Assembly: GCA_963781805.1 (NCBI GenBank)
Contig: CAWAHF010000004.1
Span: 2,311,688 to 2,375,687 of the forward strand
Length of the DNA stretch: 64,000 bases
Reading direction: 5' to 3'
Origin: an uncultured Bacteroidales bacterium
GTDB lineage: Bacteria; Bacteroidota; Bacteroidia; Bacteroidales; UBA10428
Below are positions 2,911-10,405 of this stretch, piece after piece (the stretch's first letter is position 1; each line of letters starts with the position of its first letter). The notes under the pieces are model-generated. The model had not been told where the DNA came from. It made no database searches and saw only the letters and a program-made list of their open reading frames with translations. Made by a program: the position numbers and the translations under genes.

Positions 2911-3024
2911 TGCGTTCCTGGCACATTCTTTGCGCGCTTTGAGGTTTAATTTCAATTAATTCCACAATCCAAAAATCATTCTATACATGTTTCAAAAAAA
3001 GTCTTATTTGATACATCACCTAAA

Positions 3025-3046
3025 CCATCTATTTCTTATATTTATA
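3025..3046 (+). repeat. Direct repeat DR2 (ccatctatttcttatatttata) just upstream of the alpha-2-macroglobulin gene
   Basis: Matches DR1 at 2002-2023, 1023 bp upstream. Confidence 0.7.
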
Positions 3047-3091
3047 ATTCCTTTAATTGATAAATTACCAAACCTATAAACCACACAAGTT

Positions 3092-6000
3092 ATGAAGAAG
3101 CTTTCCTTAACCTTCAAATCCGTTTTTTTCATTTGTATCCTATTAATATCCCTTACCGGTTGCCATAAAAAACCGAAAAACGATATCGTTTACAGTGAGG
3201 AAGTTGCGAAAATGATAAATTATGTGACTTCCGGCAACATTAGCAGTTACGATGAAATAAAAATTGAATTCAATGATCCGGTTGTTGAATCAGATGCGTT
3301 GAATAAACCCCTCAATAACAATATATTTTCTTTCAGACCTTCGATAAATGGTATTGCTGCCTGGACCAGCAGAAATACTCTCACATTCAGACCCGAAAAA
3401 GAGCTCCCGACACGAAAGGAGATTTTTGGAAAAGTAAATCTTGAGTTGTTGTCTGAAGATTTCAAATCGCGCAACCTGGGAAATATCGAATTCAGAATTT
3501 ATGTTACAGGTCGTGAAGTAAGTTCCTATAAAACTGATTTAATTCTTAAAGACAGAAACAATCCTAAAATATTACAATATACCGGAACAATTGAATTCTC
3601 TGAAAAGACAGATATTGAGCAGTTACAAACATCTGCTGAACTAAAACAAGGTTCAAAAGAATATACTCTCCATTGGAAAGAAACTGGTGATAATAAATCG
3701 TTTGAATTTTTAAGCGATGATATTGAACGGGAAGAAAAAACCAAAGATTTCACCTTTCGTATTAATAAGAACAAACTCGGTCTGTCAGAAGACTTTGAGA
3801 GGGAGTTTGAAGTTACTCCTTTGCAGGAAATGAAGATTACAAATATTGTGAAAGAAGAAGAAGGCAAAAGTCCCCGGCTTCGCATTGAATTCTCAGATGA
3901 GATTGATATCAGTCAGGATGTTTCAGGTTTTTTCTCCATTGAACCAAAAACAGAAACCAATGTAAGCAAGTTTGGCAGTTCGGTGGTAATAGACGGAGAT
4001 TTCAGGTACGGCGGTCAGTATTCGTTGACAATTGCCGAAGGTATAACGAGCCGTTGGGGAACCAAAACAAAGAAATCAGAAACCAAAACCATCAAATTCT
4101 CTGATCTCCCGCCGCAGATAGAATTTGTAAGTGACGGAATAATTCTTCCCACCTCAAATAACCAGAAGCTTCAGTTTTACAGCAGTAATGTCAGTCGTGT
4201 TCATCTTGAACTTAAGCGGGTGTATAACAATAATCTGAGAGAGTTTATGCGTAACGAGCAAATCAGCAGTCTTAAAAACCGGCATAACGAGTTTTCAGGT
4301 TCTTACACCAGCAACATTGGGGTGATTGTTCTAAACCAGACACTTGAAATTGGAGATGAAAAAAACAAATGGCTGCTGCATGAAATCGATCTGAAAAATA
4401 TTATCAAGGATGATCCGAACGGACTATACCTTGTACGATTGAATTTTAACCCAAGGGATATCCTTGTGGATGTAAAAGACGATGTATATAATTATATACA
4501 GGAACAGGGGCAGATCTATAAACCCATTATAATTTCTGATATTGGCCTAACCGTAAAAAACACCAAAAACGGTTATGTGGTCTTTGCTACCGACATTAAA
4601 TCGGCTCAGCCATTAGGTGGAGTCTATGTAGAGCTTTTTCCGTACTGGGATGATGAGGTTATCGCTTCTGGCACAACCAACAACAAAGGCATGGTTGAAC
4701 TTTCCAAAAGAAATTATTATTCTGCCGAGTATGTAATCGCTTCAAAAAACGGTCAGAGCAGCATCATGAAACTGGATGAGATGGAATGGAACACTTCCGG
4801 ATTCGATGTAAGTGGTGTGGAATCAACCGACGATGGTATTCGTGCCTATATCTATACCGAGAGAGGTGTATATCGTCCAGGAGATGAAATAAATCTTTCG
4901 GTGATTGCCCGAAATGAAAACAATACGTTTCCCGATCGGCATCCGGTTCAATTAAGACTTTTTAATCCCGAAGGCCAGATGATCTATGAAACCACAAATT
5001 CTGAAGGGAATGACGGTTTTTATTCTTTCAATCTGAAAACCCAGGAAAGCGCCCCTACAGGCAATTGGGAAGTAACTATCGATGTCGGAAGCAGAACATT
5101 CTATCATGTAATTAAAATTGAAACGGTTGTTCCATATAAACTTAAAGTAAATATTGAACCTGCTGCCGATAAAATAAAATGGAACGATCAATATCTTGAG
5201 TTTGATATCAACAGCAAATATCTTTTTGGAACACCTGCGGCAGGTCTCAGCGCCGAAGCCGAAGTTGAGATTCGTGAAATGGACAAGAAATTTCCCAAAT
5301 ACGAAGATTTTATTTTTAAAAATCAATTTGTTGATTTTCAATATATCAAAACCAGCATTTATAAGGGTAACCTGGATACAGCCGGAAAGGCGCATGTAAA
5401 ATGGTCATTGCCGGCATTTAATAATGTACCCTCAGCCTTACAAGCCAGATTATCGGTTTCTGTTCTTGAGAAAGGAGGAAGGCCGAATCAAAACTGGGCG
5501 ACCATCCCGATAGATCCTTATCAGTATTACGTGGGAATGAAACTTCCGGGCAAAGGATACTCCTATGTTAGAACAAATGAAGAACTAAGAATCCCTGTTA
5601 TCCTGCTCGATGGACAGGGAAATCCTGTACCGGATAAGAAACTTACTTACAGAATTTATAAAAATACTTCCTATTGGTGGTATCAATACCAGAGTAGAAA
5701 CAAGTTCAGGTTGAAATTTAAAACTGATCGTAGTACGGTTCTTGTAAAAGAAGGGAATCTGACTTCAAAAGATAAGGTCTTCTTTCTCACATTCAAACCG
5801 GATGAAAGAGGTGAATACCTAATCGAAGTTCAGGCAGGGGATTACAATGGACACAAAGCAGGTTTCTTCCTGAATGCATATCCATGGGGTTATATGCCGG
5901 AAGGAGATCAGGATGCCGGTACACTCTTGTTGAGATCAAATAAAAGTAAATATTATACGGGTGAGGAAGCCATCATTAATTTCCCTGCACCGGATAAAGG

Positions 6001-8554: not shown

Positions 8555-8630
8555 ATTTTACTCTTAATAGTAACATAGATTTAAAGAAAAGTCAAAATTT
8601 ATTCATCAATTTATTGATCCCATGCTCTTT

Positions 8631-8658
8631 CCCCTCTTGAGAGGGGTTAGTAGTGTGA
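8631..8658 (+). repeat. Solo copy of the palindromic cassette end (cccctcttgagaggggttagtagtgtga)
   Basis: Shares the left flank cccatgct(c)ttt and the hairpin cccctc-ttga-gagggg with the array end at 8728-8755. No ORF is attached. Confidence 0.7.
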
Positions 8659-8767
8659 ATTCCTTCAAATATCTTTATTAATGAGTAATATTAATCGCAT
8701 ATTTTCATCATTTAAACCCATGCTTTTCCCCTCTTGAGAGGGGCCAGGGGTGTGATAAAAGACTATT

Positions 8768-9157
8768 ATGAAGAAAAAGCTAAATTTTGTCCCTTATAAT
8801 CCAAAGCTGAAAATATTAGCCCGCAACCTTCGGAATAATTCTACCAAAGCTGAAATTTTATTATGGCATTATTTAAAGGGAAAGCAAATAAAGGGTTATG
8901 ACTTTCACAGACAAAAACCAGTTGATAATTATATACTTGATTTCTTTTGTCCGAATTTAATGTTGGGAATTGAATTGGATGGGTATTCCCACAATTTCGA
9001 CGAAATAGTTGAAAAGGACATAAAAAAAGAATTAAAAATGAAAGAGTTGGGAATTGCCATCCTTAGGTTTGATGATAGTGAAGTAATGGATGATATGGAT
9101 AATGTATTGAAAGTGATTGAAGGATTTATTGATGAATATGAAAAGTCACACCCCTAA
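8768..9157 (+). CDS. DUF559 / Vsr-like PD-(D/E)xK endonuclease-domain protein, copy 1
   Basis: 129 aa. Pattern LWHYLKGKQIKGYDFHRQKPVDNYILDFFCPNLMLGIELDGYSH is typical of the DUF559 endonuclease-like fold. Confidence 0.8.
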   Translation: MKKKLNFVPYNPKLKILARNLRNNSTKAEILLWHYLKGKQIKGYDFHRQKPVDNYILDFFCPNLMLGIELDGYSHNFDEIVEKDIKKELKMKELGIAILRFDDSEVMDDMDNVLKVIEGFIDEYEKSHP

Positions 9158-9371
9158 CCCCTCTCAAGAGGGGAAGTGATAGCACTTAGATCAAATTTTA
9201 GGTTGAATGCTGAAAGTACAGTCATGGAATTTCAAATATCATGCTTAAATAATTTAAGTTTCAAGAATGTGATTTATATTCCTTATTTATACTTTAAGCA
9301 TAGCCAAAGATTTAGTCCTTAACTCTAAACTCCCCTCTTGAGAGGGGCCAGGGGTGTGATAAAAGACTATT

Positions 9372-9761
9372 ATGAAGAAAAAGCTAAATTTTGTCCCTTA
9401 TAATCCAAAGCTGAAAATATTAGCTCGCAACCTTCGGAATAATTCTACCAAAGCTGAAATTTTATTATGGCATTATTTAAAGGGAAAGCAAATAAAGGGT
9501 TATGACTTCCACAGGCAAAAACCAGTTGATAATTATATACTTGATTTCTTTTGTCCGAATTTAATGTTGGGAATTGAATTGGATGGGTATTCCCACAATT
9601 TCGACGAAATAGTTGAAAAGGACATGAAAAAAGAATTAAAAATGAAAAAGTTGGGAATTGCCATCCTTAGGTTTGATGATAGTGAAGTAATGGATGATAT
9701 GGATAATGTATTGAAAGTGATTGAAGGATTTATTGATGAATATGAAAAGTCACACCCCTAA
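9372..9761 (+). CDS. DUF559 / Vsr-like endonuclease-domain protein, copy 2
   Basis: Differs from copy 1 by I85M and E92K plus three silent changes. Confidence 0.8.
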   Translation: MKKKLNFVPYNPKLKILARNLRNNSTKAEILLWHYLKGKQIKGYDFHRQKPVDNYILDFFCPNLMLGIELDGYSHNFDEIVEKDMKKELKMKKLGIAILRFDDSEVMDDMDNVLKVIEGFIDEYEKSHP

Positions 9762-9975
9762 CCCCTCTCAAGAGGGGAAGTGATAGCACTTAGATCAAAT
9801 TTTAGGTTGAATGCTGAAAGTACAGTCATGGAATTTCAAATATCATGCTTAAATAATTTAAGTTTCAAGAATGTGATTTATATTCCTTATTTATACTTTA
9901 AGCATAGCCAAAGATTTAGTCCTTAACTCTAAACTCCCCTCTTGAGAGGGGCCAGGGGTGTGATAAAAGACTATT

Positions 9976-10365
9976 ATGAAGAAAAAGCTAAATTTTGTCC
10001 CTTATAATCCAAAGCTGAAAATATTAGCCCGCAACCTTCGGAATAATTCTACCAAAGCTGAAATTTTATTATGGCATTATTTAAAGGGAAAGCAAATAAA
10101 GGGTTATGACTTCCACAGACAAAAACCAGTTGATAATTATATACTTGATTTCTTTTGTCCGAATTTAATGTTGGGAATTGAATTGGATGGGTATTCCCAC
10201 AATTTCGACGAAATAGTTGAAAAGGACATGAAAAAAGAATTAAAAATGAAAGAGTTGGGAATTGCCATCCTTAGGTTTGATGATAGTGAAGTAATGGATG
10301 ATATGGATAATGTATTGAGAGTGATTGAAGGATTTATTGATGAATATGAAAAGTCACACCCCTAA
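9976..10365 (+). CDS. DUF559 / Vsr-like endonuclease-domain protein, copy 3
   Basis: Differs from copy 1 by I85M and K115R plus one silent change. Confidence 0.8.
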   Translation: MKKKLNFVPYNPKLKILARNLRNNSTKAEILLWHYLKGKQIKGYDFHRQKPVDNYILDFFCPNLMLGIELDGYSHNFDEIVEKDMKKELKMKELGIAILRFDDSEVMDDMDNVLRVIEGFIDEYEKSHP

Positions 10366-10405
10366 CCCCTCTCAAGAGGGGAATAAACCCTCCAATTAAA
10401 ATACA

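Follow-up and report, generated by a model that had tools for sequence, protein, structure and literature searches.

A tandem array of hairpin-ended DUF559 cassettes in a Bacteroidales genome and a wider family of ORF-less repeats

Described systems that resemble the cassette

DUF559 is a very large protein family whose members are annotated just as "endonuclease domain-containing protein" or, wrongly, as "very-short-patch-repair endonuclease". The window, by which we mean the whole 64,000-nt stretch of an uncultured Bacteroidales genome analysed here, carries a tandem array of DUF559 ORFs, each placed between inverted hairpin ends to form a cassette. Vsr-like (EDxHD) homing endonucleases are an established family, predicted in PMC2677866, and a nuclease fold with detectable sequence kinship is common to the DUF559 cassette and one of them, I-Bth0305I (PDB 3R3P). 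Further likenesses are a small free-standing nuclease gene, optional insertion in conserved genes with filled and empty alleles (seen in relatives of the window cassette), and decaying copies, as in the homing life cycle. The DUF559 cassette does not, however, lie within an intron, intein or fractured gene, no target site was defined for it, and its protein is a single 129-aa domain, whereas the characterised Vsr-like homing endonucleases have a separate DNA-binding region. Compared with known homing endonuclease genes, hairpin-bearing inverted ends and many ORF-less copies of those ends are features of the cassette alone.

REP/REPIN repeats and their RAYT genes resemble the cassette in that a short, GC-rich hairpin carries a conserved, asymmetric tag, in the occurrence of solo copies, inverted doublets and clusters, and in a gene that has inverted copies of the repeat on either side and is far less numerous than the repeat. 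The cassette protein is, however, a putative PD-(D/E)XK Vsr-like nuclease (Pfam found DUF559 only) and RAYT is an HUH tyrosine transposase; the tag is GGGGTGTGT here and GTAG or CGTC in REPs; and the present repeats, unlike REPs, are near-identical over phyla and viral contigs and in some cases lie in frame inside genes. Insertion sequences and MITEs share with the cassette terminal inverted repeats (28-56 nt) around one ORF and internally deleted, ORF-less derivatives, but the cassette has neither a target-site duplication nor a recognised transposase (Pfam), and each of its ends forms a hairpin of its own. Rickettsia palindromic elements are restricted to Rickettsia and come without a gene of their own. 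The cassette family, by contrast, spans phyla, and some of its in-frame inserts contain a complete nuclease domain. Such inserts, in protein-coding genes that stay open, were seen in relatives; the copies in the window lie between genes. Integron gene cassettes also form head-to-tail arrays of short ORFs with an imperfect palindromic site after each ORF. The window array, in contrast, repeats one gene and has an end before and an end after each ORF; no integrase gene or recombinase was found among the ORFs adjoining it, and its linker is variable where integrons have a conserved GTTRRRY core.

We found no published description of the cassette family, and the element appears undescribed. None of the literature found on DUF559 dealt with repeats, the hairpin sequence occurred in no paper, Vsr or Vsr-like proteins were not mentioned together with REPs or inverted repeats, and surveys of REPs and MITEs did not include the present hairpin family.

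The array in the window, its ends and its protein

A repeat search of the window recovered a 604-bp unit three times (starts 8727, 9331 and 9935; 99% identity). The preliminary description had reported this unit as occurring three times head to tail; the three copies and the 604-bp spacing stood, but the array spans 8727-10383, or 2.74 units, and is not a full triplication, the third unit stopping at its own right end without a spacer. Its other structural observations were borne out: one 129-aa DUF559 ORF per unit (8768-9157, 9372-9761 and 9976-10365, with a match to Pfam PF04480), inverted ends (30 nt, 93% complementary) of which the right one encodes the final codons TCA CAC CCC TAA, the same spacer twice (two identical 156-nt stretches from right end to left end), about six substitutions between ORFs (six variable sites, three silent plus I85M, E92K and K115R), and an extra solo end at 8631-8658 with the flank cccatgct(c)ttt. 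Every one of the six variable sites lies within the ORF. The array ends, TTCCCCTCTTGAGAGGGGCCAGGGGTGTGA and TCACACCCCTAACCCCTCTCAAGAGGGGAA, are 28-30 nt long and 93% complementary, and the flank cccatgctctt(t) of the solo end recurs ahead of the first array unit. The features are as follows.

8620..8658 (end itself 8631-8658), + strand: solo left-type end, hairpin CCCCTCTTGAGAGGGG + TTAGTAGTGTGA; 11-nt flank cccatgctctt(t)
8726..8755, + strand: left inverted end of unit 1, hairpin + CCA + GGGGTGTGA; 30 nt, 93% complementary to 9146-9175
8768..9157, + strand: DUF559 ORF copy 1, 129 aa; I85, E92, K115; PF04480 E 1.6e-26
9146..9174, + strand: right inverted end of unit 1, TCACACCCC + TAA + hairpin; covers the last four codons including the stop
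9175..9330, no strand: spacer 1, 156 nt, AT-rich; same sequence as spacer 2
9331..9359, + strand: left inverted end of unit 2 (repeat search and hairpin scan)
9372..9761, + strand: DUF559 ORF copy 2, 129 aa; M85, K92, K115
9750..9778, + strand: right inverted end of unit 2 (repeat search and hairpin scan)
9779..9934, no strand: spacer 2, 156 nt; same sequence as spacer 1
9935..9963, + strand: left inverted end of unit 3 (repeat search and hairpin scan)
9976..10365, + strand: DUF559 ORF copy 3, 129 aa; M85, E92, R115
10354..10382, + strand: right inverted end of unit 3, also the right-hand limit of the array (repeat search and hairpin scan)

The array is intergenic and flanked by genes for an alpha-2-macroglobulin-like protein and a PfkB kinase. 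Homologues of the neighbouring genes point to Bacteroidales, and window copies 1 and 2, looked up as exact sequences, matched no record. The 16-nt hairpin gave 14 strand matches (7 sites) in the window and 0 in 100 shuffles, and a relaxed hairpin pattern found no copy in the 64-kb window outside the array region. Tandem Repeats Finder did not report the array because its longest period is 500 and that of the array is 604. Sigma-70 promoter and terminator scans returned matches at chance level and are uninformative for a Bacteroidales genome.

The general design of an end combines a GC-rich hairpin (CCCCTCT-loop-AGAGGGG) with a G-rich tail, GGGGTGTGT, which comes after the hairpin and is directed toward the ORF. 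The ends are predicted to fold as single strands. The left-end hairpin of unit 1 had a predicted folding energy of -10.3 kcal/mol, and the 214-nt inverted-repeat unit made up of right end, 156-nt spacer and left end folded as one long hairpin (-86.5 kcal/mol). Many copies have a second hairpin between the first and the tail, the sequence of which is free to vary while the pairing is kept; 78 of 94 such inserts had an MFE of -4 kcal/mol or lower, with a median z of -3.0. The linker between hairpin and tail was also variable (TTA, CTA, CCA, ATTTA, TGGA and others), and a likeness of GGGGTTAGGGG and CCCTAAC to the core sites of integron attC was dropped because this linker is not conserved. Neither the window region nor any of 21 motif-rich loci matched an Rfam family at the gathering threshold; sub-threshold matches to miRNA precursors were spurious and arose because the region from right end through spacer to left end forms a long hairpin.

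The window ORF matched Pfam DUF559 (PF04480) over residues 14-118 (E 1.6e-26; 92.7 bits against a cut-off of 20.6). In an alignment of 33 sequences D58, E69, H75, D84, K87 and R100 were invariant and D71 nearly so; all are present in the three window copies, and the differing residues 85, 92 and 115 lie outside the conserved core positions. Profile searches of the PDB (hmmsearch) matched 3HRL (E 1.4e-21) and I-Bth0305I (3R3P; E 0.003). An AlphaFold model (pLDDT 87) predicted one compact domain, with no separate DNA-binding region in the 129-aa protein, and Foldseek matched the model to 3HRL (E 2e-7) and to the catalytic domain of I-Bth0305I (E 5e-5; TM 0.80). The homing endonuclease I-Bth0305I is the closest characterised relative by sequence and predicted fold. 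The Vsr family model gave no match, Pfam at E <= 0.01 returning DUF559 and a sub-threshold MTES_1575 alone, and E. coli Vsr was absent from the 50 best Foldseek matches in the PDB. No cytosine-5 DNA methyltransferase was found among the immediate neighbours of the array.

Related genomes hold the window's site in other states. At L276, with a kinase 96% identical, the same site has a single decaying copy (start ATG changed to ATA, IELDG to IEPDG), and at L278, with a kinase 94% identical, it has a mixed array of ORF, spacer, bare hairpin, mini-cassette (left end, ATGAAGAAGAAATAT, right end) and truncated remnant. In an alignment with the single-copy L276, the solo end of the window occupies the position of the functional left end of L276 and is therefore taken as the ancestral left end of the locus; its G-tail is mutated from GGGG to GTAG. 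From the right end of unit 3 to the kinase stop, the sequence is orthologous to what follows the right end of L276. The cassette at the alpha-2-macroglobulin-like/PfkB site appears to predate the divergence of the relatives with 94-96% identical kinases. As these relatives have one decaying copy or a mixed array at the site, the triplication is read as a local amplification of an old resident. Of the very recent amplification that had been suggested, the local amplification is supported (identical spacers and ends, six variable sites); the locus itself is old and occupied in relatives. A second suggestion, that the three copies were insertions of the element into its own palindromic end, was not upheld: the multiplied unit includes the identical 156-nt spacer, and at least the last steps were therefore duplications of a 604-bp block. 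The uniformity of the array may reflect either recent duplication or upkeep by gene conversion.

Cassettes, mini-cassettes and bare ends at other loci

The ends and the ORF travel together, and the sites they occupy are many and unrelated, some of them in frame within genes. At 80 loci of DUF559 homologues, from which the end counts were drawn, the left end was present in 58/77 and the right end in 65/80, with both in 48/74, compared to 3/465 control windows; the association of inverted ends with DUF559 genes first noted at the array thus extends to most homologue loci. The loop class of left and right end agreed in 54/54 cassettes, and the hairpin class tracked the protein clade, with 71 of 75 nearest neighbours in the same class (permutation p < 0.0005). 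Tandem copies also occurred at L217, L198, L266, L216 and L131. No flanking inverted repeats were found at the four proteobacterial DUF559 genes sampled.

In many phyla the hairpin and GGGGTGTGT tail also stood singly or in doublets and arrays with no ORF. Stretches with the hairpin numbered 74 among viral contigs and at least 120 among genomes of many phyla, about half of these stretches having the GGGGTGTGT tail by a strict pattern, and the same sequence of 25 nt or more was found in distant phyla and viral contigs. ORF-deleted mini-cassettes with the same ends were present at L278, L251, L269 and L095, with left-to-right pairs of ends spaced 21-153 nt, and decaying copies also occurred at L140. 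Decayed DUF559 remnants next to solo ends were sought with an HMM, and none turned up outside ten known loci. Viral contigs held almost no DUF559 of this clade (two remote matches alone), and the homologues in plasmid records were all distant, with less than 41% identity. A 34-nt end compared by BLAST with phage and plasmid collections gave no match, for which the low-complexity filter is possibly responsible. Judged by these sequences, cassettes, mini-cassettes and bare ends appear to be one family over many phyla, in which the ORF-less repeats are far more numerous.

Filled and empty sites were found in a type IIG restriction-modification family, where P0241/L126 and eight other members have an in-frame DUF559 cassette at one of two sites, two members have a solo repeat array at one of those two sites, and most of 120 homologues are empty. 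These are plain in-frame inserts, with no intein or intron detected at them. In Deinococcus psychrotolerans a DUF559 gene with inverted ends of 56 nt (98% complementary) lies between paaD and paaZ, and in Deinococcus sp. QL22 the paaD-paaZ junction is ~450 bp shorter and without the cassette. Empty sites were thus found in the restriction-modification family and at Deinococcus paaD-paaZ, but not at the window locus. No empty allele was seen at the window's own site, all close syntenic relatives found being occupied, and mobility is therefore shown for the family and not for the window copy.

The proposed mechanism and its alternatives

The reading we favour, and hold with about even confidence, is that the window contains a resident selfish nuclease cassette that was locally multiplied and has MITE/REP-like derivatives. 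The preliminary description had proposed a small selfish or homing-type element; the recurrent unit, the ORF-less derivatives, the presence/absence polymorphism and the kinship to homing endonucleases agree with this, but the ends are not specific to the cassette. We infer that the nuclease itself drives the spread. The putative Vsr-like (DUF559) nuclease of ~125 aa would recognise or cut the hairpin ends or a target site, and repair of the break by copying, as in homing or gene conversion, would spread the cassette. Misaligned repair between repeated ends would change copy number, and in the window the 2.74 units may have arisen when unequal recombination or replication slippage duplicated a block that runs from the left end through the ORF and the right end to the 156-nt spacer. 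By analogy, the bare ends would relate to the cassette as MITEs do to an insertion sequence or REPs to a RAYT gene. A broader claim, which we put forward only tentatively, is that a hitherto unrecognised class of mobile element encodes a single protein, the small DUF559 protein of several phyla (Bacteroidota, Verrucomicrobiota, Cyanobacteriota, Deinococcota and others). In this class a Vsr-like nuclease of ~125 aa, set between inverted ends of hairpin and G-tail, would propagate itself and a much larger population of ORF-less repeats (solo ends, doublets and mini-cassettes), including in-frame insertions into genes.

If true, this would make the DUF559 class a nuclease-based counterpart of the REP/RAYT and IS/MITE systems. 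With the nuclease as driver, the element would be a new and minimal type of mobile DNA whose nuclease is very compact and specific for sequence or structure. The analysis ties one broad DUF559 clade to a DNA partner (the conserved hairpin and GGGGTGTGT tail) and to selfish-element behaviour, and DUF559 function becomes testable at the bench as binding or cutting of the ends by the protein. This link would also account for GC-rich palindromic repeats found across phyla, for assembly breaks at such loci, and for odd low-complexity peptides in conserved proteins (SPLERGFRGV, HTPNPSQEGN and PLSRGE), which are translated repeat ends.

One alternative, which we consider unlikely, is that the cassette is cargo: the ends would be used by an enzyme encoded elsewhere (an HUH enzyme of IS200/IS605 or RAYT type, or an integron-like recombinase), and DUF559, possibly a defence or repair gene, would be their commonest passenger. 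No DUF559 gene or recognisable remnant was found near the motif at ~92% of motif-bearing genome loci and in 74/74 viral stretches, and since most ends have no DUF559 nearby they could be moved by something else. A hairpin with an asymmetric tag is the type of signal that HUH enzymes read (PMC6006769, PMC3733652), and at the viral locus L024 one left-right pair surrounds a 290-aa non-DUF559 ORF. Among 53 cassettes no target-site duplication was found, as for single-strand HUH transposition; complementarity continued past the ends for just 0-7 bases (in most cases 1-4), direct repeats were absent, and the sites yielded no definable target sequence. A passenger role sits poorly, however, with an unbiased clustering of the ORFs adjoining the motif, in which DUF559 was the largest family (9 loci) and the only other recurring families were phage structural genes common to related viral contigs. 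The end variants follow DUF559 clades, distant DUF559 subfamilies have their own, different palindromic ends, the hairpin-tail linker is not a conserved attC-type core, and no recombinase lies beside the array, all of which argue against cargo.

A domesticated system of the REP/RAYT type is also improbable in our view. Here the repeats would be long-lived, vertically inherited and of use to the host (for example in mRNA stabilisation, termination or nucleoid organisation), with DUF559 as a single-copy, REP-associated maintenance nuclease flanked by its own substrates, and nothing would be selfish. RAYT genes are flanked by REPs (PMC3116915, PMC3733652), an arrangement matched by a gene between inverted repeat copies and a repeat far commoner without the gene; the doublets of ends are similar to REPINs, and the position of the window locus is stable across relatives. 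The identity over 25 nt or more between distant phyla and viral contigs is, however, a better fit to horizontal spread than to vertical descent, and the in-frame restriction-modification insertions, the filled and empty alleles, the decaying copies (L276, L278 and L140) and the lack of dispersed copies in the window likewise speak against a domesticated system.

We give still less credence to an ordinary duplication of a housekeeping repair nuclease, the ends of which would act at the RNA level only, by pairing of 5' and 3' untranslated regions with effects on mRNA stability, termination or translation gating. This would suit the placement of the ends, the left one lying 3-110 nt ahead of the start codon and the right one overlapping the stop in most loci, and a fold of the 450-nt transcript from left end to right end, in which the ends paired over their full length (-125 kcal/mol). 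It leaves unexplained the bare ends and end arrays far from any DUF559 gene, the in-frame insertions into other genes and the filled and empty alleles, and a repair role is further disfavoured by the lack of a match to the Vsr model and of an adjacent cytosine methyltransferase.

An assembly artefact, in which the assembler expanded one cassette or stacked strain variants, is very improbable: the 604-bp period exceeds short-read length and an independent short-read assembly (GCA_964583875.1) has a 100-N gap within the array, but that assembly likewise requires at least two copies at the same locus, the source contig is 6.25 Mb long, the copy-specific substitutions fall in a consistent tandem order, and multi-unit arrays stand at the same site in related genomes.

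The array and its locus

The preliminary description of this region, a head-to-tail array of a 604-bp unit bounded by inverted ends, was borne out exactly by the sequence. A repeat search returned three copies at 8727, 9331 and 9935, spaced 604 bp apart with 99% identity, and ORF calling gave three ORFs, all matching Pfam DUF559 (E 1.6e-26).

Features of the array and its flanks
8768-9157, DUF559 ORF, copy 1, 129 aa
9372-9761, DUF559 ORF, copy 2, 129 aa
9976-10365, DUF559 ORF, copy 3, 129 aa
Flanking gene, + strand, alpha-2-macroglobulin-like protein, 1820 aa
Flanking gene, - strand, PfkB-family kinase

The three units described earlier hold as three ORFs and three starts, while the array itself amounts to 2.74 units, since its last unit extends no further than the right end. 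Each 30 nt long, the inverted arms TTCCCCTCTTGAGAGGGGCCAGGGGTGTGA and TCACACCCCTAACCCCTCTCAAGAGGGGAA show 93% complementarity. Direct comparison of the units gave six variable sites, in agreement with the approximate count made earlier, every one inside the ORFs (three silent, and I85M, E92K and K115R); the ends were identical among units, as were the two 156-nt spacers. The 16-nt hairpin occurred at seven sites in the window, all within the array region, and at none in shuffled sequence, and a relaxed hairpin pattern run over the 64 kb found no further copy beyond that region. Tandem Repeats Finder did not report the array because its maximum period was 500. At 8620-8755 an 11-nt flank and left end are directly duplicated with a period of 97 bp (8620-8658, 8717-8755), and the 58 nt separating these copies had no convincing match to anything.

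An assembly artefact is an unlikely source of the copy number, since the three proteins are on record in a 6.25-Mb contig, each copy has its own substitutions, and an independent assembly (GCA_964583875.1) has the same flanks, between which one copy is resolved, followed by the spacer and the beginning of another copy; a 100-N gap separates these from the end of a copy. The exact number can be fixed by long reads only.

Two relatives share the neighbouring kinase. The first (L276; kinase 96% identical) has a single cassette at the same site, its left end aligning, flank included, with the window's solo end (an end lacking the ORF) at 8631, and the sequence past its right end aligning with that past the window's third right end. 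This cassette looks to be decaying, judging by its ATA start codon and a change of IELDG to IEPDG. The second (L278; kinase 94% identical) has at this site an ORF, a spacer of ~160 nt, a bare hairpin, a mini-cassette (both ends, ORF deleted) and a truncated left end with a 5' fragment. The preliminary description had reasoned that the same three copies, deeply diverged in fixed synteny, would speak against its reading; the relatives have one cassette and a mixed array, which makes the cassette an old resident that gains and loses copies in place. In more distant relatives the cassette's neighbours differ from those in the window. The window's locus was amplified locally, and the present array was either duplicated as a 604-bp block, as suggested by the identical spacers, or homogenised by gene conversion. 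Upstream of the shared kinase locus, L278 (1-3950) carries nifH, two P-II genes and a nitrogenase-like gene, placing the window's lineage near diazotroph-like Bacteroidales.

The protein and its ends

The protein matched a Neisseria DUF559 protein (3HRL; E 1.4e-21) and the catalytic domain of the homing endonuclease I-Bth0305I (3R3P; E 0.003) in a PDB profile search. Foldseek with its AlphaFold model (pLDDT 87) recovered both (3HRL, E 2e-7, TM 0.91; 3R3P, E 5e-5, TM 0.80), with E. coli Vsr absent from the best 50 matches. Vsr-like homing endonucleases were predicted by Dassa et al. (PMC2677866), and the PD-(D/E)XK survey places DUF559, Vsr and I-Bth0305I in one group (PMC3424549).

In the homologue alignment many C-termini read ...HTPNPSQEGN/S and some N-termini LRGVRGV, peptides that arise when the right and left ends, respectively, are read in a different frame. 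Nearly all of 80 metagenome loci of DUF559 homologues had a hairpin with GGGGTGTGT 3-110 nt upstream of the start codon, and ACACACCCC with a hairpin at the stop or just past it. The association of ends with the ORF anticipated earlier extends to these loci: under a strict pattern the left end was found at 58 of 77 loci, the right end at 65 of 80 and both at 48 of 74, compared to 3 of 465 control windows from the same loci. Loops fell into two classes, short (e.g., TTGA) and long (e.g., TAAAAAG), with the same class at both ends in 54 of 54 cassettes, and loop class tracked the protein tree (71 of 75 nearest neighbours alike; p < 0.0005). ORF and ends make up one heritable unit. No target-site duplication was seen outside the cassette ends, and complementarity past the ends extended mostly 1-4 bases, rarely up to 7 (...AGTT/CCCC, GGGG/AACT...).

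Among more distant homologues, the DUF559 genes of Pseudanabaena (where the repeat is perfect over 40 nt), of D. aetherius and of Picosynechococcus are likewise flanked by GC-rich hairpin repeats; four proteobacterial DUF559 genes had no such flanking repeats. Tandem or partly tandem cassettes were also found in L217 (period 1118 bp), L198, L266, L216 and the verrucomicrobial L131.

Filled and empty sites

Cassettes occupy unrelated sites, and both filled and empty alleles are known; the empty sites sought by the preliminary description were found for relatives, in a restriction-modification family and in Deinococcus. On a Deinococcus psychrotolerans plasmid (NZ_CP034185.1; L285 301-795) the phenylacetate operon has a DUF559 gene inserted between paaD and paaZ, within an inverted repeat of 56 nt (98% complementary) whose G-rich tails face away from the ORF, the reverse of Bacteroidota cassettes. 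Deinococcus sp. QL22 (L286) has an empty junction there, with paaD and paaZ ~450 bp closer and the cassette absent.

A type IIG restriction-modification protein (L126 2-3760, P0241; DUF7814, MmeI/Eco57I methylase, TaqI_C) contains an in-frame DUF559 domain, preceded by two translated copies of the left end (FPLPGGGQGVGSS) and followed by two of the right end (DTPPDPLSRGG). Further along the gene, solo ends form another array, also in frame. DUF559 was present in 9 of 120 homologues of this protein, the remainder being uninterrupted with a usual length of ~1215 aa. Six inserts follow ...QKFN (P0241, P0252, P0293, P0306, P0317, P0328), their ends translated as FPLPGGGQGVGSS or SPLERGFRGV (left) and DTPPDPLSRGG or THPQPLSRGEF (right); filled and empty forms differ, too, in the host residues that directly follow the insert. 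The other three follow ...LLKNAYY (P0246, P0273, P0353). At that site (L281 ~2990-3570, P0246) a different DUF559 subfamily is flanked by in-frame ends of the same architecture and other sequence (CTCCTCCTTTTAAAGGAGGAG, a small second hairpin CCCGAAGGG, then GGAGGTGGTTAT), including four tandem 33-nt repeats translated as SKSLPEGGGGY. P0328 (at least eight repeats of SSPSGGGQGVGS) and P0300 (PLPQGEGRMLPSPPA and RLPSPSGRGVGGEGD repeats at other sites) also contain translated solo repeats in long tandem arrays that stay in frame.

Ends without the gene

ORF-less derivatives far outnumber cassettes, and ends without the ORF, also looked for on the strength of the preliminary description, were found in viral contigs and in genomes of many phyla. 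The motif CCCCTCTYRAGAGGGG matched 74 stretches of viral contigs, at densities reaching ten copies per 10 kb; none of these stretches had DUF559. A genome scan for the hairpin gave at least 120 loci; the matches listed included Bacteroidota, Ignavibacteria, Balneolaceae, Cloacimonadota, Planctomycetota, Verrucomicrobiota, Patescibacteria, Desulfobacterales, one cyanobacterium and one gammaproteobacterium. About half of the copies had the GGGGTGTGT tail (strict pattern). Among the matches listed, 10 of 120 genome loci had DUF559, as a gene or as a fragment, alongside the motif (tblastn or HMM), and unbiased clustering of all motif-adjacent ORFs gave DUF559 as the largest family.

We favour a model in which the nuclease would have the ends or target sites as its substrates, with break repair leading to cassette spread and copy-number change. 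Its chief weakness is that the majority of ends have no DUF559 gene nearby. The repeats and DUF559 may stand in a domesticated relationship of the REP/RAYT kind (hairpin repeats with an associated transposase gene), or another enzyme may mobilise the ends in trans, DUF559 being carried along as cargo. The ends may also act purely at the RNA level. Between the first hairpin and the tail, many copies have another one (loci including L086, L131, L148, L153, L168 and L247; e.g., TGCCCGTCAGGGC, TGGCGCAAAGCGCC and TGCCCCCGATTTTATCGGGGGC before GGGGTGTGT), free to vary in sequence while keeping its pairing (MFE <= -4 kcal/mol in 78 of 94 inserts; median z -3.0), which argues that the ends fold single-stranded, as DNA or RNA. 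These palindromic inserts could also be footprints left by hairpin-end processing. No Rfam family matched the hairpin ends. Homing-type nucleases, hairpin repeats, MITE-like derivatives and in-frame palindromic inserts are each familiar; it is their combination that is unfamiliar, and the searchable literature (subscription papers outside its scope) yielded no description of the ends or of any connection between them and DUF559.

The ORF-deleted mini-cassette is clearest in L278, where ATGAAGAAGAAATAT lies between the left and right ends (translation MKKKYSHP and a stop), with others in L251, L269 and L095. At motif-selected loci, left-to-right pairs lay 21-153 nt apart and right-to-left pairs mostly 50-54 nt. 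Many Mucilaginibacter genomes carry a ~110-nt doublet of gtgcgattCCCCTCTTGAGAGGGGtggaGGGGTGTGT, 40-60 nt and cgcgcCCCCTCTCAAGAGGGGaat (L088, L095, L118, L128, L135, L147, L166, L186, L192). L024 (1310-2244) has a 290-aa non-DUF559 ORF (start ...MRFSQRIGKRPVKTVLQVESIDDDLKNRLWNEI) flanked by one left-type and one right-type end at a distance of 879 nt; these are either two solo ends paired by chance or the ends of a cassette whose cargo is different. ORF-less ends also form dense arrays on viral and metagenome contigs, in 224-237-bp tandem units in L017 (1900-2450, 5100-5650), as four copies with a period of 230 bp in L069 (7567-8272), and in L209/L210 (2400-4100), where L209 has three right-type and then four left-type copies with a DUF559 gene adjoining.
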